Source: Anaeromyxobacteraceae bacterium (GTDB lineage Bacteria; Myxococcota; Myxococcia; Myxococcales; Anaeromyxobacteraceae). Taken from it: 64,000 nucleotides of DNA. The DNA is taken from assembly GCA_047602405.1 (NCBI GenBank), contig JASGHJ010000002.1, positions 3,136,001 to 3,200,000 of the forward strand, read 5' to 3'. Under the pieces are notes generated by a model, which was not told the origin of the DNA, did no database searches, and saw nothing but the letters and a program-made list of their open reading frames with translations. The translations under genes and the position numbers were made by a program. Shown here piece by piece: positions 1,620 through 35,876 of this stretch (position 1 is the stretch's first letter; each line of letters begins with the position of its first letter).

Positions 1620-1743
1620 TCTGGGTCAGGGGGGAGAGGCGGCGGCTGGGAGCGTCCCCCGCGGGGGGATACCTCCCTCCGTGCATCCGTCACGGCGCGG
1701 GGGTGCGAACGGAGATTCTAGAATCCCCTGCATGTGGATCACC

Positions 1744-15206: not shown

Positions 15207-15235
15207 CCCCGGCCAGCGCGGCCCTGGTTCAAGGC

Positions 15236-15290
15236 CCGTTCGTCCCGAGCGTAGGGCCCGCGCAGCGGGCCCGGAGACGAGGGACGCCCC
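15236..15290 (+). repeat. REP-like element copy
   Basis: ccgttcgtcccgagcGTAGggcccgcgcagcgggcccggagacgagggacgccc, between convergent genes. Confidence 0.85.
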
Positions 15291-15293
15291 CGG

Positions 15294-16556
15294 TCACTCC
15301 ACCACCAGCATCGCGTGGTTCCGCTTCCCCTTCTGCACCATCAGGTAGCGCCCGTGCAGGAGGTCCGCGCTCCCGAGCGTCCGCTCTGGCGCGGCGACGA
15401 CCTCGCCGTTCACGAGGAAGCCCTTCCCCTGGATGCCGCGCTTCGCGTCGCCCTTCGAGGACGCGAGCCCGCTCTTCACGAGCGCGTCGAGCACGCCGAG
15501 CCCCTCGAGCTCCGCGCGTCCGACCTTCACGCTCGCGAGCTCCCGCTCGAGGAGCGCGAGCACGTCCCTCGAGACCTCGCGGATCCCGCCGCCGCCGAAG
15601 AGCACCTTCGCGGCCGCCTCCACGTTCCGGAGCACGGCCTCGCCGTGGATGCGGGTCGTCATCTCCTCGGCGAGCCGGCGCTGGGCGGGGCGCTTCCCCG
15701 GGTCGCGCGCCTGCTCGTCCATGAGGCCGCGGATCTCCTCGATGGAGAAGAACGTGAAGTAGCGCAGCCACCGCTCGACGTCGCGGTCGTCGGAGTTCAC
15801 CCAGAACTGGAAGAACTTGTACGGGGAGGTCTTCTGCGGGTCGAGGTAGACCGCGCCCTCCTCCGACTTGCCGAACTTCGCCCCGGAGGCGGTGGTGAGG
15901 AGCGGGAGCGTGAGGCCGTGGACGGAGGCGCCCTCGCGCCGGCCGATGAGCTCGGTCCCGGCGGTGATGTTGCCCCACTGATCGGAGCCGCCCATCTGCA
16001 GCTCGCAGCGCTCGGTCTTCCAGAGGTGCCAGAAGTCGTACGCCTGGATGAGCATGTACGTGAACTCGGTGAACGACATGCCGGTCTCCATCCGGCTCTT
16101 CACCGAGTCCTTCGCGAGCATGTAGTTGATGGTGAAGTGCTTGCCCGCGTCGCGGAGGAACTCCATCAGGCCGAGCGGGCGGAGCCAGTCGGCGTTGTTG
16201 CGCACCCGCGCCGCGTTGGGGCCCTCGAAGCGGAGGAACCGCTCGAGCTGGGCCTTCTGGCAGGCGACGTTGTGGTCGATCTGCTCGAGCGCGAGCACCG
16301 GGCGCTCGGCGCGCTTGCCCGACGGGTCGCCGACCATGCCGGTGCCGCCGCCGACGAGCACGATGGGCGTGCCGCCGCAGCGCTGCAGCCAGCCGAGCGC
16401 CATGACCGGCACGAGGTTGCCGACGTGGAGCGAGTCCGCGGTCGGGTCGAAGCCCACGTAGCCGGTGATGGAACCGGCCGCGAGGCGGTCCTCGAGGCCG
16501 GGGGTGTGGTCGGAAAGGAAGTCGCGGGCCTTCAGCTCTTCGATCAGCGTCGCCAT
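15294..16556 (-). CDS. tyrS: Tyrosyl-tRNA synthetase
   Basis: [32 protein letters not shown]-terminal S4 domain. Confidence 0.98.
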
Positions 16557-18220: not shown

Positions 18221-18268
18221 CGGCCCTGGCCTTCCGTGCTCGAGGGAAACACGGAGCGGTCCCTCACT

Positions 18269-18320
18269 CCGTTCGTCCCGAGCGTAGGCCCGCGCAGCGG
18301 GCCGGAGACGAGGGACGCCC
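18269..18320 (+). repeat. REP-like element copy
   Basis: Nearly identical to 15236-15290 with the stem one bp shorter on each arm. Confidence 0.85.
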
Positions 18321-19196: not shown

Positions 19197-19273
<77 letters not shown>

Positions 19274-19276
19274 CAT

Positions 19277-19326
19277 AAGCCCCCGTCACTACTAGGGATT
19301 CGTCCCGGGGTGACGGGGGCTTCTTC
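19277..19326 (+). terminator. Hairpin terminator after tRNA-Pro
   Basis: aagcccccgtcac...gtgacgggggcttcttc. Confidence 0.7.
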
Positions 19327-19486
19327 GTGCCCATGCGCGGTGGGGTGACGAACGGGGTGACGGCGTCGCCCGCGCGGCGCTGCTCGGCCTCTCAGTGCAC
19401 ACGGTCCTGACGGCCGCCGCGACCATCGGACAACCCGCGATCGACATGGCCCTGTAGTAGCCTGTACCGAACGTGAGGACCTCTCG

Positions 19487-20658
19487 ATGATCCACCATCT
19501 CTGGATGAAGAACTTCGGCCCGTACGAGAGCGCTGACGTGGAGCTCGGCGGGTTCAACGTGATCCTCGGCACGAACGGCTCAGGGAAGTCGCTGCTGTTC
19601 GGGGCGCTCAAGGCGATCGGCCGCATCGCGCGCTTCCCCCTTCGCTCTGCACGGCCCCACCTGGATGGCTACCCGACTCGTACCGGTCACGTGACCTTCG
19701 ACGAGATCGTCCACCGTTGTGACACCTCGCGCACGATGCGCCTCGGCGTGAAGTTCACCACGAAGGAGGTCAGCGGGGAATACGAGGTCGCCGTCGGTCA
19801 CTGGCACAACCCCGGCGGAGTCGTAGTCTCGGAACGCCTCCACGCCAAGAATGCACTGGGGGAACTGAAGATCAGCGCCCACCCCGACGGCAGCCTCGAT
19901 GCTGAGCCAGCATTGTCGATGCCCACCGGGAGGTTCCGTACCCCCCGCGTCGTCTCAATCCCTGGCCTCCTCTTTCGCTCCAGGGATCCCAGGGAGGCAG
20001 CGATCGCGGAGCAGGTGCAGAAGGCTCTCTCTGAGAGGACGACCATCTACAGGTTCGACCCGACGGCACTCAAGGCGCCCGCGGAAGTAGGCAAGGCGCT
20101 TTCACCCACGGGCTACAACTTCGCTACGTACCTCGATCAGAATCCGAAATCAAGCGGGAGGCAAGCAGGAGTTTGACGCGCTGTTGGATCGGTTCAGATC
20201 CGCGTGCCCGCACGTCGAGGACATCTTGCTGCCCTTTGAAGAAGGGCCGTCGGCTAGCACACCCCGGAAGCGACTCGCCTTGGTCATGCCCGGTGAATCG
20301 ACCCCGAATCCCCGGCGACCTGGAAAGCGACGGGACGATCCTCTTGCTCGCGTACGCGTCGCTCCTGCACGGCCACCGCGCTCAGGAGACTCTTTGCATC
20401 GAGGAGCCTGAGAACGGCATTCACCCGAAGGCTGTGGCTCATCAGGTCCGAATGCTGCGCCAGCTCTCACAGCCCTACAATGACCGACCTGGCGCCCAGG
20501 TACTCATCTGTACACACTCCAAGCGCTTCTTCGACGAGGTGAAGGACGACCCCTCGGTTCTGCGCCTCGTTCGGAGGGGTGGTGACGGGCGCTCGTCGGT
20601 CGAGACACCGAGCCCAACTCAGGTCGCTGCTCTGGCCGGTTGGGCTGGGTTGAGTTGA
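19487..20658 (+). CDS. ABC-class (AAA_21/AbiEii-like) ATPase; two +1 frameshifts at GAATC sites, probably artefacts
   Basis: MKNFGPY, Walker A GTNGSGKS, signature ESDG, Walker B CIEEPENGIHP, CTHS spread over ORFs 19487, 20184 and 20173. Confidence 0.85.
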
Positions 20659-20664
20659 TGACAG

Positions 20665-20692
20665 TTGACAGCGGCCTCGGGAATCGCATAAT
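20665..20692 (+). promoter_or_regulatory. Sigma70-like promoter
   Basis: TTGACA-N16-CATAAT just after the ATPase stop. Confidence 0.65.
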
Positions 20693-20696
20693 TCAG

Positions 20697-20827
20697 CGCG
20701 TGGGCTGGCGTCCCCCTTAGTGACGCCGTACCGTAGTCCCCGTGGGTTGGCGTTCCCCTTAGTAACGCCTTGAGATTTCAGGTAGTTAAGGCCGCCTCCG
20801 TCCCATCGACGGGGGCGGCCTCTTTCT
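20697..20827 (+). ncRNA. Candidate ~130-nt small RNA: two 29-nt hairpin repeats plus terminator
   Basis: Repeats 20699-20727 and 20741-20769 with a compensatory C-G to T-A change, bounded by promoter and terminator. Confidence 0.55.
20789..20827 (+). terminator. Intrinsic terminator
   Basis: AGGCCGCCTCCGTC-ccatc-GACGGGGGCGGCCT followed by ctttct. Confidence 0.75.
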
Positions 20828-20884
20828 AGCCCCTGTGACACGCTCGTCTTCCACTGTCAGTCGCGCCTGCTAGGCTGCGGAGCC

Positions 20885-21703
20885 ATGTGGAAGAGGACCC
20901 GCCTTCTGATCTGGGGAAAGACTTACCCGGAGTTCTCGAAGCGGTACTACGAAACGGTCTGCACCGGCGCGATCCACGGCGAGACGGGTCGCCTGATCCG
21001 GATCTACCCAATCACGCTCCGGTACCTCGACGAGCACTTCCGCAGCTACCAGTGGATCGAGGCAGAGATCGAGCGCAACACGAGCGACTTCCGCCCGGAG
21101 AGCTACAAGATCAAGCAGAACACGATCACTCTGGGTGACTTCCTTGATCCTCAGAAGAAGGACGGCTGGAAACGGCGAGCAGAGTGGATTCTCCGGCCCG
21201 GCAACGTCTTCACGTCAATGGAGGCGCTGAGAGAGGCGGAGCGAGCCGACCGCACGTCACTAGGCGTGATCAAGCCCAAGAGCATCAAGGGCTTCTACGC
21301 CCGCACGCGCTCCCCTGAGGACAAGGAGGAGTGGGAGCAGAAGCGCCAGCTAGCCATCACCCAGAAGGACCTCTTCGTGGACACGGAGAGCAAGGTCGGC
21401 GAACTGGAGTTCCGCTGGGTGGACTACCGGGTTGAGTTTCGCTGCGATGACCCGGCGTGTTCAACGCTGCACGACTGCTCGATCCTGGATTGGGGAATCT
21501 ACGTCCTCGATCGGAACCAGGAGAGGAAGAAGGGCAGCTACAAACTCGCGGAGGCGGACGTCCTCGCCAAGCTCCAGGAGATCGCGGATCCGCAGAAGAA
21601 GGACATCCACTTCTTCCTCGGCAACACTAAGGACCACTCGAACAACTTCTCGGTGGTGGGTCTCTTCTACCCGCCGATCGAGAGGCAGGGGCAACTGCTC
21701 TAG
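20885..21703 (+). CDS. Conserved hypothetical protein (KTYP...Y.ETVCTG...RIYPI family, possibly dual OB-fold)
   Basis: Motifs KTYP, ETVCTG, IRIYPI, DFRPESY, CxxxxC...H...DW, FFLGN, GLFYPP; family assignment recalled, not searched. Confidence 0.7.
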   Translation: MWKRTRLLIWGKTYPEFSKRYYETVCTGAIHGETGRLIRIYPITLRYLDEHFRSYQWIEAEIERNTSDFRPESYKIKQNTITLGDFLDPQKKDGWKRRAEWILRPGNVFTSMEALREAERADRTSLGVIKPKSIKGFYARTRSPEDKEEWEQKRQLAITQKDLFVDTESKVGELEFRWVDYRVEFRCDDPACSTLHDCSILDWGIYVLDRNQERKKGSYKLAEADVLAKLQEIADPQKKDIHFFLGNTKDHSNNFSVVGLFYPPIERQGQLL

Positions 21704-22128
21704 AGGTTGTGGATCCTCACGCCCGCGAGCCCGGCCGCGCTTTTGGCCAGGATCGACCGATGGCACTTCGCGGGGTTGGCCTCGGCGCACAGGAGCGCAG
21801 AGCGCTCACCCGCGGCAGCGCCGATCACCGCCTCTGTGATCTCGGGGTGCTCGTCGAGGTGGGCACTGTAGAGGGCGAGGCACCGCTCCAGGTGGTCACC
21901 AGCCTCGTGCCGGAACGGATTCCCGGCTGACCTGATGTGGCGGTACGCGATCCCAGCGCGTCCGAGGGCGGCGCTGAGCGGCGTCTTCGAGAAGCCCTTG
22001 CGGCGGGACAGCGGGAGCTCGCGCACGTCGATCACCTGGGTGACGCTTGCTTCCCGGAGCACACGGACGAAGCCCTGGAGCGTCCGCCCTTCGTAGCCGA
22101 TCGTGAAGAGGACGTCTTTCTGGCTCAC
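21700..22128 (-). CDS. DUF488 family protein
   Basis: FTIGYEG, IDVRELPLSRRKGFSK..L, LLCAE....CHR. Confidence 0.88.
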   Translation of the reverse strand: MSQKDVLFTIGYEGRTLQGFVRVLREASVTQVIDVRELPLSRRKGFSKTPLSAALGRAGIAYRHIRSAGNPFRHEAGDHLERCLALYSAHLDEHPEITEAVIGAAAGERSALLCAEANPAKCHRSILAKSAAGLAGVRIHNL

Positions 22129-22215
22129 GGCGAAGTGTATACGGCTTCACCGCGGCGGGCGCCAGAATCACAGCGCCTCGCACCGGACGATCGAGCCCGC
22201 TATGATCGTCCAGCC

Positions 22216-22494
22216 ATGATGAGCAAGACCTGGACCCTCGTGATCGCTCACACGGCCGAGGTCGGCGTCCGCGTGCTCCTGCTAGAAGCCGCCCTAGCAG
22301 CAGACTTCGGCCGGTGGCTCCGCGCGAGCGGGTGGCATGTCAGGTTCGAGGACACGACCGCGAGGAGCCCCTACGAGCTGCGAAGGACCAAGGACGAAGA
22401 AGACCTCGCCGGTGGACTGGCCTCCGCCTACTCGCAGTGGGCCCGAGTCGCGCGACCCAGCCTCGCGTTGGCGGACCTGGGACGACATGGCTGA
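22216..22494 (+). CDS. Hypothetical protein (~92 aa)
   Basis: ATG after a TATGAT -10-like box; overlaps the next ORF start. Confidence 0.5.
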   Translation: MMSKTWTLVIAHTAEVGVRVLLLEAALAADFGRWLRASGWHVRFEDTTARSPYELRRTKDEEDLAGGLASAYSQWARVARPSLALADLGRHG

Positions 22495-23002
22495 ACCCAA
22501 GCTCCTCAGAGTGGACTCGCTTGACCCGAACGTCGAGCGTGCTCAAGCACGTCGGCGCCGGCAACGCGGTGTTTCCGCCTGGATCGCTCAGTGGGTGACG
22601 CCCGACGTAGCGGACCATCCGCTTGAACTCGCGAATCCATCCGTCCGAAGCGGCGTGGTCCTCGTGGCCTCTTCTCGGGCCGCCGAGGACAAGGTCTGCG
22701 AGAGCGCGAGAGCGATCTACCTAGCCCAGCTTGCCGAACCGTCGTTCATCCTAGAGGTCTATCGACTGGAGCACGCGCCTCGGCCCCGACGTGGGCCCTC
22801 ACCGGTCACTGCGATCTACGCGATGCTCGAAGCCAAGATCGCGGGCGAGCGACGTCGAGCCCCCTTCGTCGGGCGCTTCCGCTTCGGTCGCGATCCTTGC
22901 CTTTACGTGAGGCGGGTCAAGAACCTCCGCGAACGCCAGGACGGCTCGCTCGACTGGGACGAGATCCCAATCCCTCCGGTCCCGGGTGATCCCAGCGAGT
23001 AG
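22487..23002 (+). CDS. Hypothetical protein (~171 aa)
   Basis: Coupled to the upstream ORF; globular composition. Confidence 0.5.
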   Translation: MAEPKLLRVDSLDPNVERAQARRRRQRGVSAWIAQWVTPDVADHPLELANPSVRSGVVLVASSRAAEDKVCESARAIYLAQLAEPSFILEVYRLEHAPRPRRGPSPVTAIYAMLEAKIAGERRRAPFVGRFRFGRDPCLYVRRVKNLRERQDGSLDWDEIPIPPVPGDPSE

Positions 23003-23017
23003 GGCGACGGCGCCTCC

Positions 23018-23317
23018 CTACTCGCTGTGCAGCGCGAGCAGCTTGCTCACCGCCGCCGCGTGCCCGGCGTGGTTCGGGTCGTTGAGGGCGGGGTCCTTGC
23101 GAAGCTCCGCGAGGGCGGCCTTCCGGTCGGCCCGGGGCGGGGGCGGGGCCGCGGAGGCGGCGACGAGGTCCGACTCCCTGGCCGTGAGGTTCACAAGGCG
23201 CTCGGCCTCGGCCGCGCGTTCCTCGGGGAGCATCCCCCGGTCCTCCATCAGGCGCTTGCGGGAGGCCGCGATCTCGGCACGGGCGGAGCGGATGGCTTCG
23301 AGCTGCTCGGGGGTCAT
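23018..23317 (-). CDS. Small protein with scaffold-like C-terminus
   Basis: GGAGGT RBS, ATGA coupling; ends ALAELRKDPALNDPNHAGHAAAVSKLLALH. Confidence 0.7.
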   Translation of the reverse strand: MTPEQLEAIRSARAEIAASRKRLMEDRGMLPEERAAEAERLVNLTARESDLVAASAAPPPPRADRKAALAELRKDPALNDPNHAGHAAAVSKLLALHSE

Positions 23318-23868
23318 GGTGTCACCTCCAGGATGCCTCTGCGGATCTCCTCGCGGATCTCCTGGGCGCGTTTCGTGATCGAAAGGTCCCCGACGTCGCT
23401 CCGCACGCGCTCGAAGTCGAAATCGGACGAGATCGACTCGCCGCCGTGACGGATGGCGAGGAGCAGGGCCGCAGCCTCGCGGAACGCGTCGATCGCCTGA
23501 GGCTTCCGGGCGCGTAGCGCTGCGAGCACGAGGCCCCGCTCCTCCTGGACGATCTCGCCGCTGAGCTGCTCGACCTCCCGGCGGACGTGCCCGAGGGCGT
23601 GGTCGAGCGCGGGCACCTGCTCCCGCAGTTCGGTCTCGTGCTCGAAGGCGCGAGCGAAGGCAGCCTTGGCCGCCTCGGCGCGGGCCTCCGCGTCCGCCGT
23701 GCCCTCCAGGACGGCCGTGACCGCCAGCTCCTTCGAGGCGGCGGAGGTCTCCTGCGTGAGGAGGGCCGCGCGCTCGACCTCTCCGCGCACCCGGTTCAGC
23801 TCCTTCGAGATGCGGTCGTGGACGGCCTGTCGCTCGGCGAGGCGCGTACGCTTCTGTGCGAGTTCCAC
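23314..23868 (-). CDS. Coiled-coil hypothetical protein (184 aa)
   Basis: AAGGAGG RBS; heptad-rich helical sequence. Confidence 0.75.
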   Translation of the reverse strand: MELAQKRTRLAERQAVHDRISKELNRVRGEVERAALLTQETSAASKELAVTAVLEGTADAEARAEAAKAAFARAFEHETELREQVPALDHALGHVRREVEQLSGEIVQEERGLVLAALRARKPQAIDAFREAAALLLAIRHGGESISSDFDFERVRSDVGDLSITKRAQEIREEIRRGILEVTP

Positions 23869-23878
23869 GGGCGCCTCC

Positions 23879-24259
23879 TTACGCGGTGACCGGGTAGTCC
23901 GCCGCGCGGGCGAGGATCGCGGCCTTGCGGCCTTCGAGGGCGGCGTCGGTGAAACTCGCGAGGAACTTGGCCTTGGTCGCGTTCCACGCGGTCGCGGCGT
24001 CCGAGCCGCCCGAGAGCTGCCGCGCGTAGAACGGGGCGATCTCCTCGTTCAGGCGGGAGGTCGAGATCCCGTCCGCCTGCGGCGCCGTCGCGCCCGCAGC
24101 GACGAGGACGCGGAACTTCGCGGAGGCCAGCGCCTCGGGCTGCGAGAACTGCGGGTTCACGCTCGCGAGGGCGGCGGCCCAAGCGGCCTCGGGCGAGTTG
24201 CCGGCGGCGACGGACGCCTTCACTGCCGCCACGAGGTCATCGAACTCCTTGGTCGTCAT
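23879..24259 (-). CDS. Ala-rich helical hypothetical protein (126 aa)
   Basis: AAGGAGG RBS, strongly GC3-biased codons, internal repeat AGNSPEAAW/GGSDAATAW. Confidence 0.75.
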   Translation of the reverse strand: MTTKEFDDLVAAVKASVAAGNSPEAAWAAALASVNPQFSQPEALASAKFRVLVAAGATAPQADGISTSRLNEEIAPFYARQLSGGSDAATAWNATKAKFLASFTDAALEGRKAAILARAADYPVTA

Positions 24260-24279
24260 CGGGTGTTCCTCCTTGGACC

Positions 24280-24612
24280 TCAGCCTCGTTCGTCGCGTGG
24301 TATCGCTTCAACGGGCGGTGACGATCCCAGAGGGCCCCACCGCTGGCGGATGGTCTGGGGGTGCGGGACCTCCTGCGGGAGGTACCCGAGCGCGAGGAGG
24401 CGCCTCCGGGTTGCCAGAGCAGCCTCCCGGGACGAGAAGCCCGAGGCGACGAGGTCCTGGTAGATGGCCGCGCCCACGCGCCTCCGGGCCTCGCGGGCCA
24501 CCGCCGGGCGCGACTCGACGAGCTTCCGCAGCTCGGCCAGTGCGGCGGGCTCGGGGAGCCTGCCGGCAGCGAGGGCCTCCAGGGCGTCGGCGAGGAGCGC
24601 GGCGTCGGTCAC
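24280..24612 (-). CDS. Hypothetical protein, possible HTH
   Basis: GTGA coupling to the upstream ORF; GFSSREAA...PQTIRQRW. Confidence 0.55.
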   Translation of the reverse strand: MTDAALLADALEALAAGRLPEPAALAELRKLVESRPAVAREARRRVGAAIYQDLVASGFSSREAALATRRRLLALGYLPQEVPHPQTIRQRWGPLGSSPPVEAIPRDERG

Positions 24613-24845
24613 GTCCCGCTCGCCTCCCGGAGGAGTTGGCGCCCGAGGAGGTCGAGGAGGTCCCGGTGTGCCGCGATCTCCTCCCTGTGGGCAGTAGGCG
24701 CGAGGCGCACCGCGCGCGAGAGGGCTCGGCAGGCGTCCGCCACGGACGACTCGCACGCGAGGACCCGCTGATCGGGCTCGGGCACCTCGCGGCGCTCGAA
24801 GGGGATCGGCCTGGGACGACCGGAGCCGGCGGGGGTGTTCGCCAC
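24609..24845 (-). CDS. Hypothetical protein (78 aa)
   Basis: GAGG RBS; part of the coupled operon. Confidence 0.55.
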   Translation of the reverse strand: MANTPAGSGRPRPIPFERREVPEPDQRVLACESSVADACRALSRAVRLAPTAHREEIAAHRDLLDLLGRQLLREASGT

Positions 24846-24849
24846 GTCC

Positions 24850-25434
24850 TCACCTCCTCAGCGACCGACGCACGGCCACCGCGTGCTTGCCGCGCTCCTC
24901 GGACTCAAGCCACGCGTCGAGCCTGCGGCGGTCCTCCTCGGGCGTTGGCGGCCGAGTCGGGCGGAGCACGGGGCCCGGCTCGCGCGCGGCTGCCTCGATC
25001 TGTGGGCGCCACGCGGTGAGCATCTCCGGGGGCACGTCGGGCGCGACCACTGCGGCGACCTCGGGCCAGGGCAGGCCACCCCGGAGGAGCGCCGCCGCGT
25101 GCCGCACGTCGGCATCGCGGAGCCCCTGGCGCCCCACCAGCGGCTCCGGGAGCGGTCGCGAGGCCGGCGGGCCTACCTCGGCCGCTCGCCTCCCGACCTC
25201 CCCCCGGTAGCGCTCCACCGCGTCGGGGTGCACGTTATCGGCGACGAGGTCCTCGCGGATCGCTGACCACGGGGTTCCCGCCCGCAGCGCCCTCGCCGCC
25301 TGGACAACCTCCTCCTCCCTGAGGTCATGGCGCCACGGACGCTTCGAGCGCGGCAGCCCGCGCGGAGGGATCTCGATCGTCGGGGTCGAGGGCTTCGTGT
25401 TCGAGTCTCTGAACTTCTGCCGCGGGTCGGTCAA
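24850..25434 (-). CDS. Hypothetical protein with duplicated short helical motif
   Basis: TTGA overlap with TerL stop; AARALRAGTPWSAI and AAALLRGGLPWPEV. Confidence 0.55.
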   Translation of the reverse strand: MTDPRQKFRDSNTKPSTPTIEIPPRGLPRSKRPWRHDLREEEVVQAARALRAGTPWSAIREDLVADNVHPDAVERYRGEVGRRAAEVGPPASRPLPEPLVGRQGLRDADVRHAAALLRGGLPWPEVAAVVAPDVPPEMLTAWRPQIEAAAREPGPVLRPTRPPTPEEDRRRLDAWLESEERGKHAVAVRRSLRR

Positions 25435-26745
25435 AGCGTGCTCCTCGGGTGGAGGCTGCTCCGCACGCTGAGGACGCGCGGCTCGGCCCACGTGCGGCCG
25501 GTGCTCGGGTCGCGGTAGACGGGCGACATGTCGTGATCGGCTAGGCACAGGGCCGCGTAGCGGATCGAGTCCGCCGCGTGCGAGTGGATGTCGTGGAGCG
25601 GGGGGCCGCGCCCGCCGTGGCGCTCGTCGGTATCGCGGCGGTACATCGCGAGGTGATCAATCCCCTCGGCCGTGTACCCCTCGTCGAACACGCAGTGCGG
25701 GAGGAGCGACGCCGCCGCAGCGATCCCCTCCTCGACGCCGCAGCGGGGCGCGACCTCGACGTGGAAGCCGAGGATCTCCAGGGCTTCGAGCCGGGAGCGG
25801 CCCGAGACGAGATCGCGTACCCGGATGTCGTGGGGCGCGTAGACCGTACGGACCCCAAGAATCGCGGAGGGTGCGGCCCACGTCGGCAAGGCCGGTGCCC
25901 ACCCACTCTCGGAAGAGGAGGATCCGGTGCTCCCCGGCGATGCTCTGCCCGACCCACGCGGAGGTGGCGTCTGCGATCCCGAGGTCGAGACTCGCCCACG
26001 CGTCGGCCTCGTCGATCCAGGGCACCGCGGGCAGGATGCGGCCGGCGGCGCGGAGGGCGGTGATGATCGCCCCGTAGATTGAGCCGGGCGGCGCCGCGGA
26101 GAAGTCGCACTCGAACTCCCGCGCGTACGCGTCGGCCGGCATCGTCGCGCGCGCTGCGGCCAGCTCCCCCGCGGGCAGCACGCCCGTCTCGGAGGCTCGG
26201 AAGAGGAAGTGGCTCCAATCCGGGAGGCCGCGGGTGTCCTGGATGAGCCGGTACAATGGATCGCGTCCCTTGGGCGTGCCGATGAAGATCGCCCAGCCCA
26301 GCCGATCGGCGAGGGCGGGGCGGACCACGCTCGCGAACACGCTGTCCTCCATGAGGGCGTACTCGTCGAGCACCACCCCGTCGAGCCCGACGCCGCGGAG
26401 GCTGTCCGCGCCGTCGAGTGCGCCCGCGAGGAAGACGGCCGAGCCGTTCGGGAACACGACGCGAAGCTCCTGCTCGAACACCTGGACGCCGGGGACCGGC
26501 CGGACGTGGTCCTTGAGGCGCTGCCACGCGACGACCTTGGCCTGCGTACGGGTCGGGCCGACGTAGGCGCAGAGAGCGCCCGCCTTCCGCAGGGCGGTGT
26601 CGGCCAGCTCCGCGATCGCGGCCTCCGTCTTGCCGCCGCGACGGTGGACGACCGCGACCGTGAACCGGCGCCGCTCGCGGTGGACGCGCTCCTGCCAGGG
26701 CCGCGGGACGTAGCTGAGGCGGACCTCACGAGTGAACGGTTTCAT
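25431..26745 (-). CDS. terL: Terminase large subunit (+1 frameshift at 25859-25863, probably artefact)
   Basis: YVPRPWQ, HRRGGKT Walker A, PTRTQAK, LRG...VVLDEY, IGTPKG, REFECDF, LDLGIAD, HDIHSHAADSIRY. Confidence 0.92.
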
Positions 26746-27491
26746 CCGTAGAGGACCTCTTCGAGGGTGAGACTTCCTTCTTCTGAAAGTGCTCGGCCTG
26801 CGATCTCGGCTGCTTGGGCTTCGCGGGGTGACCGCGGGGAATCGACCGGGGTGACATTGACCGCGGCGAGGGCGGGAAGCGGATCACGCGACGGGACCCC
26901 CGTGTTCACCACGAGCACCTGCACGGCGCCGGGGCCGATCACCACCTGCGTGTCCTGGTAGAGGTTCGCGAGCTTGTTGACGAGGTCCTCCGCTCGCAGC
27001 GCGGCGTTGCGATCGCCCTCCTCTTCGGCTTCGCGCCCGAGTCGTTGGATGCGAGCGATCTGGCCCTCACGCGTCACCTGGGCAGCGCGCCGCGCACGCT
27101 CGCGGAGGAGCGCGACAAGCTCGACCACCTCGGGCCGTCTGAGGACCATCCACGGCGCCCCGCCACGAGGGGACAGCCCGGCTGCGCGCGCGGCTGCCGG
27201 CAGCGAGGCTCCGCCCGCGTGCTCCTCCGCGAGCCGCGTCGCCTTGGCCGTGCACCTCGCCCGTGCGTCCGCGATGCGCTCCTCAAGCGCGTCCGCGTCG
27301 AGCTGCTCGACCGGGAGGGTCGTCCCCTCACCTTCCCTCAGCCCACTGCCGGCCGGTGGTGGGGATGGTGGGGTTTCGGGCCCACTCGCCAACCGCTCAC
27401 CTACCTCGACACTCTCATTTCTCTCCGCCACCGTCGTCTCCCTCTCCGCCCGAAATGTTGAAGGTGAATTTCCTTCCGCGTTGGCAACCAC
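26742..27491 (-). CDS. terS: Probable terminase small subunit (true start probably downstream of the ORF start)
   Basis: Directly upstream of and coupled to TerL; HTH-like AARAAGLS, then LRRPEV...VTRE..IARI...AEEEGDRNAALRA..L.K...LY. Confidence 0.7.
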   Translation of the reverse strand: MVANAEGNSPSTFRAERETTVAERNESVEVGERLASGPETPPSPPPAGSGLREGEGTTLPVEQLDADALEERIADARARCTAKATRLAEEHAGGASLPAAARAAGLSPRGGAPWMVLRRPEVVELVALLRERARRAAQVTREGQIARIQRLGREAEEEGDRNAALRAEDLVNKLANLYQDTQVVIGPGAVQVLVVNTGVPSRDPLPALAAVNVTPVDSPRSPREAQAAEIAGRALSEEGSLTLEEVLYG

Positions 27492-27520
27492 CCCTAAGAC
27501 TCCACCATCCCCACCACCGG
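27353..27520. repeat. 19-bp perfect inverted repeat, candidate replication origin
   Basis: ccggtggtggggatggtgg (27353-27371) / ccaccatccccaccaccgg (27502-27520) around an AT-richer spacer at the end of the primase-helicase gene. Confidence 0.6.
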
Positions 27521-30491
27521 ACTCTCCACGTGGTAGAGGGTCCGGCCGCGGACGATTCGGGCGCGGAGCACGAGGTCCAGGTTCGCGAGGGGCTGGTCCA
27601 CGAGAGTACCGAGGAAGTGACCCAACGCGGGCGCGCTGTGCACCCGCTTCCGGTCGGTCGCCTCAATCGCGTCGCGCAGCGCCGCCTCGTCGGTGTCCGA
27701 GGGTGGAAGGTCGATCCCTCCGTTCACTCGCCGGACCACTTCCGTGCATGAGAACTCCCGCGCGGCCGGAACGGCACCGCCCGGATCCACCACCCCGAAC
27801 ACCGCGGCGAGCGCGACGAGAGCCGAGACCTTCGCCTTCTGTTCCGGGCTCGACTCCGCGACCTCGGCCCGCTTATCGAAGATCCCGCTCTCCCCGGCGA
27901 AGGCGAGCGGCCACGTCACGAGTCGGTCCACGTCGCTGCCGAGGCCGAGGCTCGGCCCTTCCTCGCGTGCCCCAGCCGCGAACCACGCCCGCTGGATCGT
28001 GAGGAGCGCGTGGAGGACCTCGACGCGGATGGTCTGCGCATACGCAATCGGATCAGCGTTCCTGAACCTCCGCTGCTCGGGGCACGCCTCCTTCGCGAGG
28101 AGGTCGATCTTCACGAACCGCCGGATCAGGTCCGATGCGACCTCGACCTTGTTCCCCGTGAAGACGAACAGCGAGCACGTGGGCACGTCCACGTCCTGCG
28201 TCAGCCCGAGGATTCGCTGCGTGTAGACCGGCGACGTGATGATGGGCGACAGGACCGGGTTGTCGATCGTCGCGCCATCCGGGACGTTGTCGAAGCAGAT
28301 CATCGTCGGGCTGCGCATCAGCGTCGCGAGGATCTGCTTGCGAGCCTCGCCCTGATCCTCGGGCAACGTCTGCACCGCCATGTCTCGGCCAGTGAGGACG
28401 GTGTGCATCATCCTCGCGAGCGTCGTCTTCCCCGTGCCCTGGACCGTGGCGTTGATCAGGATCGCTGGGCCCTGGCTCGTCGCCTTCCTGGAGACCCCGG
28501 TGAGGAGCGCCGCGATCGCAGCGGCCCCGTCCACCCCGGCGTCCTTGAAGAAGCACCTCCGCGAAGAGCAGCTCGCGGATGCGATGCGCCGCTGCGACCG
28601 CCTCGTCCCTCGTCGGCGCCGGCTTCACCTGCGGGAACCGCCAGCCGTCGAATGACAGGAAGAGGCCCGTCGCGTCGTCGAGGCCCTCGCCTGAGAGGAG
28701 CCGACCGCTCGGAGTGTGAACAGGGTGGAGAACGAGCCCGGTGACGCGCGGCGCGCGCTTGTCCGGGAGGTCCAGCATGAAGGTCGGGAGCTTGTCGAAC
28801 GGAACCTCCATCGGGACCACAGCCCCCTTCTCGCCGCGCCGGTAGAGGCACACCGACTTCTCGATCGCGAGGAGCATCGAGACCTTCGTGTGCGGCACGA
28901 AGAGGACCTGCTTGGGAGGCGGGAGCCGGTCGTCCGGGGACCGGTGGGCGTTGTCCGGGTGCTCGGAGTTCGGGATCTCGTCCTTGGCGACCCGGACGTA
29001 GGCGCGGTCGATCCGGAGGAGTCCGTCCTCGATCAGCGCCGCCTCGACCTGGGGCAGCATCGAGTTGTAGGACATCGGGTTCCACAGGACCGGCGCGCGG
29101 TCCTTCGCGACGAGCGTGAGCCGGTCCTTCGACCTCGCCGCCTTGTAGGACGCCGAGCGCTCCGCAAAGAACACCTTCCAGGCGTTCGTGATCGCCCGCT
29201 TCTTCCCGATGTTCAGCTTCTCGACCACGAAGGTGAGCGCGTCCTCGAGCCCGACGGGATCGAGGTGCGCGTCATAGACGACCTTCGCCCACGCCTCAGT
29301 TGCGAGCGGCTCGTCGCGTTCGTTCGCGTCGAGTGCCAGTTCGACGAGGGCCCGCCTAACCTCCTCCAGCGACACCCCGGAGCCCGTCCGCGAGTAGATG
29401 CGCTGGAAGTAGCGCTCCTCGCCGGCCTTCGCCTTCTCCGCGCCGGCGCCGTGCGGGTACGAGATCAGGAGGTGTCGCGTCTCGCGGTAGCTGAGCCCGC
29501 GCGCCTTGAGCATCGAGCCCAGCGACATGTCGAGGCCGGACCTGGAATCGTCGCCGAGCCCCGTGCCTCGCCCCTGCCACCGCGCCTCCAGGAGCACGTC
29601 CGCCGCCCTGAGAGCGTCGAACCGCTCCGCCAAGGCGAGGCGCTCCCCCTCGTCGAGCGGGGCCGTTTCTTCCGTGAAGCTCTCTTCGCGGGGCGCACGG
29701 GGCGACTCCTCGGGAACAGGCTCGGGGAGGCCGTCCGAGAGCTGCGCGATCGTGTACCGGGCCCCCGCGTCGGCGTGCAGCACCGCCGCGAGACGCGCGA
29801 CCTTCGGGTATCCCTTCGCCATCTTCTTCTTGGTCGGGTGGTTCACCGTCCCGGCGAGGCGGAGTATGCGATCGACGTTGTGGGTCCCTGGGTCCCCGCC
29901 CCACCGCGCAACGAGGCGCCGGTTCAGGTGCTCGACGTCCGCGTGCTCCACAGGCTCCGCGAGCCGCCACAGGGCGGAGATGCCGTTCCCGGAACTCCAC
30001 ACGACCGTGGGTGGCGCCGGGCTCGCGGCCATCTCCGCGGCCACGATCTCGTGAAGGTAGGAGCGAGCTCCCGAGTAGCCGCCCTTCTGCGCCATGAAGG
30101 CGTCGGGGTCGATCTCGACGTGGGCGAACCGCGCCGCGCCGATCTCGGCCTTGGATGGCTTCTTGAAGACGCGCTCCGCGGGCGCGTTCACCGAGAAGTA
30201 GAGCTGCTCGCCCTTTCGGTTGTACGCGCAGGCGATCTCCGCGCCCTTCGCCCGCGCCGCGGAGTCCGACGCATCGATGGTGAAGCCCTTCATCCCGTCC
30301 GGCCCGAGGTGGCAGACGACCACGAGCCCCCCGAGCTGCTCCAGAAAGGCCGCGACGGCAGACTGGTCCGGCGCGACGGGTGGCGGCGTGATTCGCGTCT
30401 TGCTAGGCTCCTGGGAGTTGGTCGCTCTCGATGCTGTCCTGACGCGCTCGCCCTGCCCGGCGGGCGCGTCTGTTTCTTCGAGGCTCGTCAT
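27494..30491 (-). CDS. Primase (RepB/AEP-type)-helicase fusion, ~1000 aa, +1 frameshift near 28555
   Basis: LYFSVN, HVEID, SSGNG...WRL, DRILRLAGTVN (primase); QGTGKT and CFDNV (P-loop helicase). Confidence 0.85.
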
Positions 30492-30919
30492 GGGCGGGCC
30501 CTCCTGCGAACGCGGATGCAGCCCGGCGCGATGTTCCGGTCGGTCCGTCTCGCCTCGCGCGGCAGCCCGCCGACGTCGAGCATGTTCACCTCGCGCCGCA
30601 GGCGGTCTCCCCGCAGCCCATGGAAGGCATGTAGCCACTCGCGCACGAGAGCCCGCATTGCCGTGAGGTCCTCGCGGTGCATCAGGACGTCACTCGGGTG
30701 CGTCCACGCCCCCACGGCGCCGTCGATCCACCCGACCAACCGTGACACTGGCGAGGTGTCACGCCGGAGCGAGGCGAAGTTCTCCAGGGGTGGGAGCGTC
30801 AAGGTCAGCCCGAACTGCGCGTCCTCTTCCGCCCACGCTGCTTGCGCGGGAGAGCGCCGTGCGAGGCGCCAACGGCCGAGCAGCGGGCGCGGGTTGATGA
30901 TGCGTTGGCGAGTCGTCAT
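30488..30919 (-). CDS. Hypothetical protein (143 aa)
   Basis: Lies between AlpA and the primase, ATGA-coupled. Confidence 0.6.
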   Translation of the reverse strand: MTTRQRIINPRPLLGRWRLARRSPAQAAWAEEDAQFGLTLTLPPLENFASLRRDTSPVSRLVGWIDGAVGAWTHPSDVLMHREDLTAMRALVREWLHAFHGLRGDRLRREVNMLDVGGLPREARRTDRNIAPGCIRVRRRARP

Positions 30920-30928
30920 GGCTGCCCC

Positions 30929-31174
30929 CTACCGAGTGGCGTCGGCGAGCCCGCCGCGAAGGTTGGCAGCCCCGCGGCGCGCGGACTGCGGGCGCGCGAT
31001 CTGGCGGTCTACCCACGCGAGGATTTCTGACTCCAGCCAGGTGCGGCGTTCGGCGACGTAGGACGGCGCCGGGAAGTCCCCCGCTCGGCACCGGCGCCAG
31101 ATCGACACCCTGTGAAGCCCTGTCAGCCTCTCCGCGTCCCGGATCCCGACACGGCGGTCCGTTGCTGGTTTCAT
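30929..31174 (-). CDS. alpA: AlpA-family regulator/excisionase
   Basis: TGLHRVSIWRR...GDFPAP......WLESEILAW. Confidence 0.9.
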   Translation of the reverse strand: MKPATDRRVGIRDAERLTGLHRVSIWRRCRAGDFPAPSYVAERRTWLESEILAWVDRQIARPQSARRGAANLRGGLADATR

Positions 31175-31448
31175 CGCGCACCCGTTCCACGCCCCGATTG
31201 CTGGATCGGAAGGCCGTGCGGGCTACTCGTGGGGCGCGGTTCAGTTCAGACGCGCAAGCCGCCGGCCATGCTGTGTCATGGTGGGCGCTGCCTGTTTGAC
31301 TGATTGACTGGTTTGGCTGGTTTGCGCTGAGCGATGCCGCCGACTCAGGGGCCGATTGAGGTGGGCCGACCTAACTCGGGCACAGTACGCCCGCCGGGAC
31401 GTCCGACGCAACTACCGGCTGCGAGCGAGTGAAACCGACCGGACTACC

Positions 31449-32777
31449 CTACTTCCGAACCGTGTGCAGGAACGCGACCTTGGCCTGCTCGGGCGTGACG
31501 ATGCGCTCGACGTAGGCCGCCCACCGCGCGAGCGCCTCGCGGCGCTCCTCCAGGTAGTCGCCACGGTCGTACACCCGCGCGATGCGGCCGAGCGAGTGGT
31601 TGAGGCACCTCTCCGCGATGTGCGGCGCCACCCCGAGCGTCTCGCCGAGGTGCGTGCGGACCGTCCTCCGGAGGTCGTGCGGAGTCGGGTGAGGCTCCGC
31701 GAAGGCGAGGAGCGGCTTCTCGCCCTGGAAGAGCTTGCGCATGGCGGCGATCAGCGCCTTGTCGGTGTAGCGCCCGGTCTCGGAGTTCGGGCTCGCCATG
31801 ACGAACGTCGAGCCCTCCGCGTAGTGGCGGAGCTTCTCGAAGAGCGCGGCCACCGCGGGGGTGAGCGGAACCACGAAGGGCTTCGCCCGCCCGCGCATCT
31901 TCGGCTTCATCTTCTGCCGCTCCACCGGGATCGTCCACGTGCCCGCGTCGGTGTCGATCTCGTCCCACGTCGCGCCGAGCAACTCTCCCGGGCGCACGCC
32001 CGTGAGCAGCACGATCCGGAGGCCGATCCGCGTCTGCGGCGCCATGCTGCTCTCGTCGAGCGCGCGCCAGAACGCAGGGATCTCCCCGACCGAGAGGAAG
32101 CGCTCGGACTCGTTCTCGACCACCCCGAGCGCCTCGGGGTCCAAGGCGTCGGCAGGGTTCGAGGGAACGAGCCCGTGGCCCCGAGCGAAGCGGAAGATGC
32201 CCTTCACGTAAGCGAGGGTCCGCCCTGCCTGGGTCCGCGAGCCGCGCGCCGCTACGTGCTTCACGATCGCAGCCACCTCCGGCGGCGTGATCGCCTTCAC
32301 CGGGCGCGCGCCGAGCGAAGGGAGCACGTCCCTCGTGACAGCCCTCCTCACTTCGGGCGCCGTCCTCCACCCGAGCGCAGTCGCCACGTGCTCGAAGTAG
32401 TCCTTCGCGACGACCTCGAAGGTCGCCTCGCCGGCCAGCGTCGGCTCGGGACGATGGCGCGGACGGTTCGCCCGCAGCTCCGCCTCGACTTCGGTCAGCC
32501 GACCTTCCTTGTGGGCAGCCTTGAGCCGTTCCAGCCACCGACGCGCCTCGCCCAACGTCACGAACCCGGGGCGCTCCGCCTTCGTCCACTCGCCGATGGT
32601 GATCACCCTCCCCGCACTCGTGCAGTACCACCGGAAGACCTTCGTGCCCGTGGGGAGCACGCGCAGGCGCAGCCCGGCCGCTGCGGGGTCGGCCACCTCG
32701 TAGCGCCCGGCCTGCGGGCGCAGCGCCTCGATACGGGGCGGCGTGAGCGGCGGGATCTTCGTGAGCTTCTCGACCAT
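31449..32777 (-). CDS. int: Tyrosine integrase with N-terminal arm-binding domain
   Basis: GLRLRV.P.G.K.F arm domain; LLTGVRPGE, HDLRRT, LNH...VYDR catalytic residues. Confidence 0.96.
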   Translation of the reverse strand: MVEKLTKIPPLTPPRIEALRPQAGRYEVADPAAAGLRLRVLPTGTKVFRWYCTSAGRVITIGEWTKAERPGFVTLGEARRWLERLKAAHKEGRLTEVEAELRANRPRHRPEPTLAGEATFEVVAKDYFEHVATALGWRTAPEVRRAVTRDVLPSLGARPVKAITPPEVAAIVKHVAARGSRTQAGRTLAYVKGIFRFARGHGLVPSNPADALDPEALGVVENESERFLSVGEIPAFWRALDESSMAPQTRIGLRIVLLTGVRPGELLGATWDEIDTDAGTWTIPVERQKMKPKMRGRAKPFVVPLTPAVAALFEKLRHYAEGSTFVMASPNSETGRYTDKALIAAMRKLFQGEKPLLAFAEPHPTPHDLRRTVRTHLGETLGVAPHIAERCLNHSLGRIARVYDRGDYLEERREALARWAAYVERIVTPEQAKVAFLHTVRK

Positions 32778-32979
32778 GGCGGCCTCCGGAACCTGTCACC
32801 CCGCGGGCGACGCTTTCGGCCGCCATTCTGTCACCCCGGATCGCGCGCGGGGTGACAAATCGACCTCGCCAACGCTGCCGGTTGCAGGTGGTTGCGCGGC
32901 AGCTATCTTCGCTGGGCCTCAGCCATTTGGAGGGTCGCGACGCAACTGCCTGCAACCGCCAGAAACGGGGCCGAAATCC

Positions 32980-33025
<46 letters not shown>

Positions 33026-33028
33026 TAT

Positions 33029-33068
33029 AAAGGCCCGTAACCTGGGGACTTCCCGAGTTACGGGCCTT
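33029..33068 (+). terminator. Hairpin after attR (probably the terminator that preceded the insertion)
   Basis: aaggcccgtaac...gttacgggcctt. Confidence 0.65.
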
Positions 33069-33341
33069 GTCGCTATCTCGGCCCAGGTGCGCGGCAAGGT
33101 GCGTTCTGGTTTGGTCCGCTCGCCGCGGACAGGTAGGGCGGGCTCGTGCGCCGGGCAAGGGATGGAAAACGCGCATCTCACGAATAGTGCGCGTCACGCC
33201 TTGTCTGAAGAACCACAGGGAGGTATGCACCGATCCCGAAAGGGACTCGGAGCTTGGACTTAGGTCTGTTCCTCGAGCGGGCAGGCAAGCCGCCCGGGCC
33301 TACGCCCGAGCTGGCTCCACTCACGCCCGACGACGTCGTCC

Positions 33342-33917
33342 GTGCCTACTACTTCGAATCCCGCCGCCTTTCCCCGCGGTCCGGTCATCGACAACCAGCA
33401 GACACAGTTTAGATGGGAGCAGTCCACCTCAGGAGTAGCTTGGGAAGTCGAGCTTCGAACAGTTAACGGCGCGCTCGTAAACAGGAGTGTTGCAGGGGAG
33501 ACCTTCGCGATCCGCCGTGAACTGTGGCCTGCGCGCAGGCTCCGCGGGATGCCCGGCAAAGGGCGAGTCGCACACAACGCCTGCTTATGCCTAGCACAGG
33601 GATTCACTAGGTGTGGCGTTGGGCGGGAGATCTACCGGCGAGAAGAGGCGCTGTACCGCGCCTGGGGAGCCAAGGAGATTCACACGGAAGCCGCTTGCGA
33701 TGCCCTGAAGTCCGGCGTTTGGTTCGATTTCGGCTTCAAGGTCGCCCCCGACGAACTGAACTCGTTAGGTGTGATCTGGAGGGAACTGCAGGCGGAGATC
33801 CTGAAGCGAAGCGGGAACCAGTTGCGCCAACTAGGCGAAACTTGGGACACTTGGGAGCCTGAGTTCCGTCGCTTCATCGGCGAGCGCGAATCGGTTCCGA
33901 TGTACCGGGTGCTGTGA
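33342..33917 (+). CDS. Hypothetical protein, possible GNAT fold
   Basis: FTRCGVGREIY (motif-A-like) and VWFDFGF; lower GC. Confidence 0.55.
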   Translation: MPTTSNPAAFPRGPVIDNQQTQFRWEQSTSGVAWEVELRTVNGALVNRSVAGETFAIRRELWPARRLRGMPGKGRVAHNACLCLAQGFTRCGVGREIYRREEALYRAWGAKEIHTEAACDALKSGVWFDFGFKVAPDELNSLGVIWRELQAEILKRSGNQLRQLGETWDTWEPEFRRFIGERESVPMYRVL

Positions 33918-34597
33918 TGGAGTGGCATACACTTTACGTGATGTCGCCAGCAGAGGTTGCCTACGGGCGTGTGATCGCCGTGGTCACTCTGCGCGAGGCC
34001 AAGGTCCACCTGAGCGTGAGCGACCCCGAGTTCGCTCCCCTTTTGCATCGCTTGTTCGAGGAGGACTTCGAGGAAACTGTCGGGTTCCCTGGGCGCTTGA
34101 TTCGCGAGAAGGCGGGGACGCTGAACGCGTTTCGTGCGGCCGCCCGCTACCTGAACTCGGTCTTGGGGCTTGGAGTGGCGGTGCAGCAGGTTGCATCGAC
34201 ACAAGCTGTTTCCTCGGCTCGCCTCTCCTCGGTAGAGGCCGAGCGGATGGCACAAGCTGCCTTGTTCGTGCTCAGTGCCCGCGATCACGAGCGAGTGCTG
34301 CAGGCGATGACCTTGTGGCGTGCGGTGATGAGGTACAAGGCTGAACTCGCTTTGAGATATGGGTGCTTCAAACGGTTAGACCGGGAGCGCAGGGCCGTCG
34401 AGATGCGCAGGTTCCGGCAAGAGACACTGGTAGGGGCTCCCTCGGTGAGCGCGTTCCCGTCCCGGGTTCCCCTCGCGCATGCAGGGCCGGGCGCGGTACG
34501 CCCGACGACTGAAGGCCGGAGTCTCGACGACCTGGTCGCGGGTGCGGTCGTTGCCAAGGACTTCCTTGAGCGCCCACAGGGAAGGGCTCATGCCTAG
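33914..34597 (+). CDS. Hypothetical protein (227 aa)
   Basis: Overlaps both neighbours; lower GC. Confidence 0.55.
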   Translation: MMEWHTLYVMSPAEVAYGRVIAVVTLREAKVHLSVSDPEFAPLLHRLFEEDFEETVGFPGRLIREKAGTLNAFRAAARYLNSVLGLGVAVQQVASTQAVSSARLSSVEAERMAQAALFVLSARDHERVLQAMTLWRAVMRYKAELALRYGCFKRLDRERRAVEMRRFRQETLVGAPSVSAFPSRVPLAHAGPGAVRPTTEGRSLDDLVAGAVVAKDFLERPQGRAHA

Positions 34598-35828: not shown

Positions 35829-35876
35829 GCACGTCGTCCTGAGCTCCCGCACCACCGAACCACTTCGATCAGAAGG

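Follow-up and report, generated by a model that had tools for sequence, protein, structure and literature searches.

In a 64,000-nt stretch of the genome of an Anaeromyxobacteraceae bacterium (assembly GCA_047602405.1, contig JASGHJ010000002.1, positions 3,136,001 to 3,200,000; hereafter the window), the gene of an AAA_21/AAA_15-type ABC ATPase is followed by a predicted small RNA gene. The source genome (G000) is a 6.16-Mb assembly in two contigs, with a GC content of ~72% and a completeness of 98%. Comparison with other genomes showed that, on sequence grounds, the ATPase gene and the hairpin–terminator unit behind it form a conserved pair. The same layout, in which a −35 box, the hairpin motif(s) and a terminator come after the ATPase stop codon, with no partner gene, was found in 3/3 of the clade loci that were available, namely the window, a Polyangia genome (G401; locus L074) that encodes an intact 401-aa ATPase, and a virus record (G402; locus L075), and the ATPases of the three loci are mutually about 50–60% identical. 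No co-oriented partner open reading frame (ORF) lies next to the ATPase gene in L074, L075 or the window. The first-pass annotation of the window had described an ATPase with complete motifs, no coupled partner gene and an RNA-like unit in the partner's position; all parts lie at the positions it gave, and the place of the RNA in the partner's position was borne out at the three available loci of the clade. No paper on an ATPase-plus-small-RNA system was found in the open-access literature, and the unit is apparently undescribed, an assessment that rests on three loci.

The RNA unit of the window consists of a predicted promoter, two 29-nt repeats that are 90% identical and an intrinsic terminator-like hairpin (Table 1); hairpin motif and terminator are likely to form a small RNA gene. 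The promoter matches the consensus at 11/12 positions and is the sole one predicted between 19100 and 23100, where shuffled sequences gave a mean of 0.3. In L074 and L075, a TTGAC box, 39 and 6 nt past the stop codon, respectively, is followed by UGGG, a 5–6-bp stem with a CCYCUUAGN loop and, after a short linker, a strong hairpin and a T-run, and the number of motif copies per locus ranges from 1 to 2. Over the four motif copies, 3/6 stem pairs change on both sides, 97% of cells pair and the covariation score was reached by 4/500 shuffles. Two of these copies arose as a tandem duplicate, however, and the same sequences served to draw the structure. The elements follow one another as GGG, stem, CCY, loop and stem, as they would in an H-type pseudoknot (GGG:CCY). 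The folding energy of the unit gave z = −3.25 for the whole and z = −0.25 without the terminator, so that folding energy by itself lends the repeats no support; this comes from their conservation elsewhere. A retron-like inverted-repeat fold from promoter to terminator (z = −1.72) was rejected.

At gathering score, Rfam gave nothing but the tRNA in the window and no family in L074 and L075, the remaining matches being sub-threshold chance matches of terminator type. The pattern derived from the four motif copies was found only in G402 among IMG/VR viral contigs and only in G000 among 401 genomes of the phylum. A search for orphan copies with the exact motif pattern gave 0 matches, and a relaxed promoter-plus-motif pattern gave 20 viral stretches, in which the stem closes only in G402. 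In a blastn search for an orphan RNA, plasmids gave just a 25-nt terminator fragment and phages nothing. A covariance model built from the four copies found only these four to be significant in 100 sources and three genomes, its positives being circular and its value lying in the negative outcome.

The fixed place of the motif directly past the stop codon, together with a promoter that is weak in two of the three loci, would be consistent with a cis-acting 3′ element or a 3′-derived regulator that tunes the level of ATPase mRNA or protein, with no toxin–antitoxin switch. This explanation is quite unlikely: the window has a near-consensus promoter and a tandem duplication of the motif, and comparison of the loop with the region of its own ATPase gene showed no match of ≥7/8 bases in any of the three loci. 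For this lack of loop complementarity, an antisense action on the ATPase's own mRNA was rejected.

In the assembly, the ATPase gene is broken into three reading-frame pieces, which tile intact relatives of 383–401 aa end to end with no gap. Each break is due to a single extra A, at 20141 in one case and at 20307 in the other; both lie within GAATC, at which the relatives have an Ile codon, and two host genes in the window carry the same type of lesion (extra base at 14633 and 18640). A genome-wide comparison of G000 with its close relative G195 over 284,792 aligned columns showed that 24/59 isolated extra bases of G000 lie in GAATC/GATTC, compared to 1/19 in the reverse direction and 0.8–1.3% expected for random insertions. 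Because the extra bases match this systematic error at GATC sites, the two frameshifts are very likely assembly or sequencing errors and the gene would be intact, as the first-pass annotation had supposed. The systematic extra A or T at GATC suggests a base-calling error at possibly methylated GATC, and many apparent pseudogenes of the G000 assembly are suspect for the same reason.

These data also bear on the possibility that the pair is a relic, in which the clade lost its nuclease, the RNA hitch-hikes and the window copy is a pseudogene. Such a relic would fit the existence of three loci only, the truncated virus copy and the two frameshifts of the window copy as assembled. It is nevertheless very unlikely, as at least 14 full-length clade proteins of 45–82% identity have invariant catalytic motifs, the stem shows compensatory changes and the frameshifts match the systematic error.

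The ATPase clade is discrete and rare, as judged from database and tree analyses. The N-terminal piece retrieved 37 matches, six of which (including the query itself) reached E values up to 1e-30, and a search with a full-length relative gave 16 proteins, 15 of them at 45–100% identity, followed by a fall to 29%. The clade proteins share a common start, a length of about 390 aa and the C-terminal WAGL, and show no variation in Walker A, signature, Walker B or H-loop. In an unrooted tree of 13 clade, nine sister and five outgroup proteins, from which the window's protein (being in pieces) and 22 outgroup ORFs that failed the motif or length filter were omitted, the 13 clade proteins made up one side of a branch with a support of 100/99. 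Only one clade locus was found in 185,579 species genomes and one in IMG/VR; at 1e-40, the clade profile matched 1/391 genomes in the class of the Polyangia genome G401. Among 400 other genomes of the phylum, none contained a close relative of the N-terminal piece, and plasmids and named phages gave only matches of 23–29% identity to the clade ATPase.

Among PADLOC profiles, HEC-01A was the best match of the ATPase (E 8e-32 with the intact relative P0167) and the AriA profile scored lower. The structural model of another relative, P0163 (pLDDT 90), showed no separate nuclease domain, and its top solved matches in Foldseek were the ATPases of retron type I-A and Septu PtuA, at a template modelling (TM) score of about 0.5 and 15% identity. 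The isoelectric points (pI) of the 13 clade proteins were 6.5–9.1 (median 7.8; window protein 8.3), compared to 5.1–6.6 (median 5.7) for the 27 outgroup proteins, pI being a crude proxy and two of the nine nearer sister proteins being basic too (pI 8.4 and 7.7). Basic residues conserved specifically in the clade are R53, R67, R153, K195 and R366.

An outgroup set was collected with the profile at E 1e-18 and comprised 27 further ATPase loci, spread over 26 of the 380 other genomes. The RNA motif was found within 200 nt of the stop codon in 0/27 of these loci (one with just 182 nt of flank), and a downstream ORF was called in 26/27. DUF4276 was detected at E 0.01 in 15 of the 25 downstream ORFs scanned, five of them above the curated cut-off, and HEC-01B in 8/9 scanned with PADLOC; the union of the two was 18/25. 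As the outgroup thus consists mostly of ATPase–TOPRIM pairs, the clade has an RNA where a nuclease gene stands in the outgroup, and its C-terminal tail is unlike that of the partner-bearing outgroup. We infer the direction of change, from nuclease gene to RNA, with the tree being unrooted. A search for DUF4276, the one family searched for, found none in the 98%-complete G000 or in G402, and in G401 it was found beside a different ATPase, on another contig. Fused ATPase–TOPRIM forms were absent among proteins of 840–2395 aa, in a weak search that left 682–839 aa outside its range. Past outgroup ATPases of three genomes (L131, L133 and L135), DUF4276/TOPRIM is fused to a C-terminal dihydrofolate reductase domain, and an ATPase with such a fusion is an unusual defence-like architecture.

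Comparison with known systems indicated that the ATPase–RNA unit falls outside the toxin–antitoxin (TA) systems of type III (including AbiF), HEC-01, PARIS, Septu and retrons, by the gene content and layout of the three loci; it is not HEC-01, PARIS, Septu or a retron because the partner gene is missing. HEC-01, described in a preprint (bioRxiv 10.1101/2024.01.29.577857) as a DUF4276-type ABC ATPase with a TOPRIM protein, is the best profile match and has the same architecture as the outgroup; the clade has the RNA motif and terminator in place of the TOPRIM gene, another C-terminal tail and a basic pI. With pairs of the HEC-01, PARIS and AbiL type, the clade shares an AAA_15/21 ATPase with intact motifs, but an adjacent TOPRIM gene (DUF4276, DUF4435 or RloB) was absent from 3/3 loci. 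Likewise, PARIS AriA–AriB, in the account of PMC11464382, shares with the window an AAA_15/21 ATPase on a satellite-like element, but AriB is missing here. Retron type I-A (Ec78/Eco7) and Septu PtuA provide, besides the top structural matches, the precedent of an ATPase held by a hairpin, as far as PMC12819146 describes it; however, no reverse transcriptase or HNH (PtuB) gene was found beside the ATPase in the three loci (flanking ORFs were checked with Pfam and PADLOC in the window and by eye in L074 and L075), and the partner is multicopy single-stranded DNA in retron type I-A, whereas it would be RNA here. Type III TA systems (ToxIN, CptIN and TenpIN) and AbiF with its hairpin RNA resemble the unit in having a lone protein gene with a short RNA (here apparently structured, on four sequences), variable repeats, a promoter and a terminator, and a further likeness lies in the possible H-type pseudoknot and the viral carriage of the RNA. 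However, their toxin is an endoribonuclease (ToxN/CptN/TenpN, or the HEPN protein of AbiF) according to PMC5086642 and bioRxiv 2025.04.15.648962, compared to an AAA_21 ABC ATPase here. In addition, PMC5086642 describes repeats that lie upstream, with the terminator in between and a single promoter, whereas the RNA lies downstream in 3/3 loci here and has its own promoter.

The layout, the covarying stem, the lack of a protein partner, the intact catalytic motifs, the basic charge shift, the contrast with the outgroup and the swappable cargo slot are the observations from which a mechanism can be proposed. The reading we prefer, tentatively and at somewhat less than an even chance, is that the RNA acts as a type III-like RNA antitoxin that restrains an ATPase effector. 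The small RNA would be made constitutively and in excess, and would bind and restrain the ATPase in the manner of a type III RNA antitoxin. Upon shut-off of host transcription by a phage, the RNA would be lost, its lability being the trigger, and the freed ATPase might then arrest the infected cell, for example through depletion of ATP or by holding nucleic acid in a clamp. We infer here that the RNA is transcribed and binds the protein, that the free ATPase is toxic, that loss of the labile RNA is the trigger and that the effect is anti-phage. The confinement of the motif pattern to the known units was counted in favour of this reading, as was the variable number of motif copies, one or two, since RNA antitoxin arrays vary in copy number in the account of PMC5086642 and the AbiF antitoxin has two motifs according to bioRxiv 2025.04.15.648962. 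In retron Ec78 (type I-A), PtuA grips a nucleic-acid hairpin, as reported in PMC12819146. A wider proposal, in which the lineage dropped its nuclease and took a small, possibly pseudoknotted RNA as its sole partner, giving an RNA-gated, nuclease-free TA or abortive-infection system whose RNA a virus captured as counter-defence, is doubtful.

The virus copy bears on the direction of the two roles. G402 is an 85-kb virus classed as complete, with terminal repeats and many small unusual ORFs. Its ATPase gene is 5′-truncated and covers only profile positions 230–390 (the last about 160 codons), and the −35 box, the motif and the terminator are intact. Capture of an RNA antitoxin by a phage is known for ToxIN, in the form of a phage-borne pseudo-ToxI (PMC3475682, in the part that deals with it). 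Since a virus that lacked the antidote would pay a price for carrying a toxic RNA, the presence of the RNA with only part of the ATPase fits a harmless or useful antitoxin better than an RNA toxin; thus, the virus copy favours the antitoxin direction, without proving it.

Several points weigh against the RNA-antitoxin reading. The model shows no separate nuclease domain, and no killing domain is visible, which leaves the killing step unexplained, and ATPases of this class act as antitoxin or sensor, not as toxin, in NetFlax D29 as presented in PMC10440598 and in PARIS AriA as presented in PMC11464382. An RNA that lies downstream and has its own promoter is unlike the canonical type III operons described in PMC5086642, and the promoter passes the consensus scan in the window but not in L074 or L075, where only the −35 box is clear. 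The pseudoknot helix shows just one change, from G-C to G-U, and the covariation drew on few and partly duplicated sequences. The PtuA match is generic, with Rad50 scoring close to it, and the charge shift is shared by some sister proteins. The virus copy could be decaying cargo. Finally, the ATPase–RNA unit was seen in three loci only, the DNA beside the other 13 or so clade proteins lying outside the sample.

The usual role of the ATPase (NetFlax; PMC10440598, as far as it goes) would be kept if the RNA were instead the toxin, either as a CreT-like mini-message or through its C-rich loop pairing with ribosome-binding sites or tRNA, and the ATPase were the antidote and phage sensor. The RNA stands in the position of the toxin gene, 3/4 motif copies read as a six-codon mini-ORF that ends at the UAG of the loop, and RNA toxins exist, CreT being the example given in PMC12737573. 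However, the mini-ORF frame is broken in L075, no ribosome-binding site precedes the mini-ORF, the loop differs from the 16S 3′ end of the source genome and the virus has the RNA without a whole ATPase, so that this reversal of roles is also quite improbable. Readings of the RNA as an anti-Shine–Dalgarno mimic or as a mini-ORF were judged weak and retained solely as part of this alternative.

The family precedent of the ATPase as antitoxin or sensor (NetFlax and PARIS, within what those reports cover) and the model without a nuclease domain would also suit an ATPase–RNA ribonucleoprotein, in which the ATPase stays a sensor or antitoxin whose effector is encoded at another place, or acts for the mobile element as a decoy that counters ATPase–nuclease defences of the host. 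The separate ATPase–DUF4276 pair on another contig of G401 points in the same direction, as does the setting of the loci: all three lie in or beside mobile DNA, namely a satellite-like element, a transposase-like ORF and a virus (in L074, read by eye, the transposase-like ORF lies upstream and a convergent host-type gene downstream). The absence of DUF4276, the one family searched, from G000 and the virus record and the C-terminal tail unlike that of the partner-bearing outgroup argue against a ribonucleoprotein of this kind, which we consider unlikely.

Downstream of the RNA, the window encodes a 272-aa protein and a DUF488 protein, whose genes are convergent and overlap by 4 nt. The overlap and the CxE...CHR motif are as the first-pass annotation gave them, and its view of the two as a pair was supported: among 25 metagenome loci of the 272-aa protein, 14 were evaluable (whole C-terminus and >500 nt beyond), and a convergent DUF488 gene with CxE...CHR was present in 14/14 of them, at gaps of −4 to +15, two of these loci being near-identical. 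The 11 other loci comprise six partial matches, four whose sequence runs out within 100 nt and one that fell to the E cut-off. A 60%-identical copy of the 272-aa protein in G213 had no DUF488 gene within 20 kb. For distant homologues in 14 other genomes, DUF488 lies upstream in tandem in 10/14, and none was found within 1.5 kb in 4/14. The neighbours of the 272-aa gene, scanned in 38 selected ORFs, include type I, type III and ISP restriction genes, an HNH gene and integrases.

The same annotation had taken all these parts for possibly undescribed units, and this holds, it appears, for the ATPase–RNA unit, but not for the 272-aa/DUF488 pair, which matches PDC-M19B (E 4e-57) and PDC-M19A (E 4e-27). 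The pair is, by these profile matches, a convergent variant of the catalogued candidate PDC-M19, arranged tail to tail, compared to the tandem arrangement of the distant homologues, and its novelty is limited to this layout. The DUF488 protein matches just the C-terminal half of the PDC-M19A models; PDC-M19 matches were also obtained for the metagenome locus L049 and for the DUF488 protein of L052. The PADLOC preprint (10.1101/2024.01.29.577857) made 145 untested candidates searchable, and its main text does not name M19; in the open-access literature, neither a paper on "PDC-M19" nor a functional study of DUF488 was found. The model of the 272-aa protein (pLDDT 91) has a fold of nucleic-acid-binding type, a tandem OB fold, in line with the nucleic-acid-acting pair proposed earlier. 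Foldseek matched it to RPA and HIN-200, and comparison with baculovirus LEF-3 (VIA) gave a middling Z of 7.3 (root-mean-square deviation 7.2, 186 residues aligned). In the ESM Atlas, DuOB matched at a TM score of 0.68 and the nearer family PF30888 at 0.89, and the 272-aa protein had no Pfam match to DuOB (PF22557) at E 0.01, though the fold is similar. The 272-aa protein is a likely nucleic-acid binder and the DUF488 protein a putative Cys-dependent enzyme. In tailed-phage clusters, proteins structurally related to the 272-aa protein are common (ESM Atlas, TM 0.71–0.76), which hints at a phage-encoded branch.

The order of promoter, repeats, terminator and gene in the window is that of the type III layout given in PMC5086642, and the four parts might accordingly be one system in which the RNA and terminator serve the 272-aa gene as a type III-like leader. 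L074 and L075, however, have the RNA without the 272-aa gene, and the clade ATPase was found in 0/25 metagenome loci of the 272-aa family. The RNA covariance model likewise had no significant match in the 16 of these loci that were searched, and the L049 pair, at the same tRNA and with 74% DNA identity to that of the window, lies behind different upstream cargo. A single system is thus highly improbable and the four-part unit envisaged in the first-pass annotation fell away; judged by their distribution, the parts belong to two independent modules that share one cargo slot.

The slot is the left end of a 13.8-kb satellite-like integrative element, which carries the ATPase, RNA, 272-aa and DUF488 genes as cargo and is bounded by attachment (att) repeats at a tRNA-Pro(GGG) gene. 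Phage satellites resembling phage-inducible chromosomal islands are att-bounded elements of 10–20 kb with integrase, AlpA, primase and packaging genes, and the element may be one of them: att repeats, an integrase, AlpA, a primase and a terminase large subunit were found, and no capsid or portal gene was recognised in it with Pfam and PHROGs. The close relative G195, which is 91–93% identical over the host region of the window, has unrelated sequence behind the same tRNA-Pro. L049 shares a SIMPL gene and the tRNA-Pro with the window and has in the ATPase/RNA slot a TIR-domain PDC-S35 gene (E 1e-64) and an unassigned 263-aa ORF (1665–3554), after which comes the 272-aa/DUF488 pair. Such different cargo at the same tRNA implies that the slot is exchangeable and holds defence-type genes, as had been proposed for a cargo slot of a satellite. 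Elsewhere in the element, two overlapping + strand ORFs at 22216–23002 (92 and 171 aa), possibly a further cargo pair, had no family match in Pfam, PADLOC, NCBIfam or PHROGs, and several ORFs at 23018–25548 are without assignment. Outside the att repeat, a second low-GC stretch (33100–35900), unmatched in the G195 region compared, contains a DUF6941 gene (34479–35009) as well as orphan ORFs of 191 and 227 aa. A 50–60-nt repeat at about 15235–15295 and 18260–18320 is dispersed in genomes of this genus, with many matches.

Table 1. Features of the two modules and of the element that carries them (positions in the window)
Feature	Position	Strand	Basis or remark
tRNA-Pro(GGG), integration site	19197..19271	+	ARAGORN
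Satellite-like integrative element, 13.8 kb, holding both modules	19228..33030		att repeats and element genes
att repeat, 51 bp, copies 98% identical	19228-19278 and 32980-33030		left copy overlaps tRNA-Pro(GGG)
AAA_21/AAA_15-type ABC ATPase, 389 aa over three pieces, C-terminus ..WAGL	19487..20658	+	Pfam, PADLOC, relatives
Walker A, GTNGSGKS	19568-19591	+	sequence
Signature, LESDGT	20320-20337	+	sequence
Walker B, CIEEPENG	20395-20418	+	sequence
H-loop His	20515	+	sequence
Predicted sigma70-type promoter, TTGACA-16-CATAAT, 6 nt past ATPase stop	20665..20692	+	consensus scan
RNA motif copy 1 (UGGG, 2 nt, 6-bp stem, CCYCUUAGN loop)	20699..20727	+	29-nt repeat
RNA motif copy 2	20741..20769	+	29-nt repeat
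Intrinsic terminator-like hairpin, 14-bp stem, weak U-tract	20789..20827 (hairpin to about 20821)	+	
272-aa tandem-OB-fold protein, PDC-M19B family	20885..21703	+	PADLOC, E 4e-57, full length
DUF488 protein, CxE...CHR, 142-aa single domain, PDC-M19A-like	21700..22128	-	PF04343 E 2e-20; PDC-M19A E 4e-27
Terminase large subunit, in pieces	about 25431-26745	-	element gene
Primase, in pieces	27494-30638	-	element gene
AlpA	30929-31174	-	element gene
Integrase	31449-32777	-	element gene

ABC ATPases of this family rank with the most common components of bacterial immunity. The characterised systems compared, as far as their reports describe them, combine the ATPase with a nuclease, and toxins of type III are RNases. 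The ATPase–RNA unit may serve as a minimal model for the tethering of PtuA-like ATPases on nucleic-acid hairpins in retrons and, being about 1.4 kb long with an intact natural copy in L074, is directly testable. It might take the form of a nuclease-free ATPase effector under RNA control, of an ATPase sensor coupled to an RNA toxin, or of an RNA-loaded decoy; if true, the pairing of an ATPase with nothing but a small RNA would amount to a new architecture under any of these distributions of roles.

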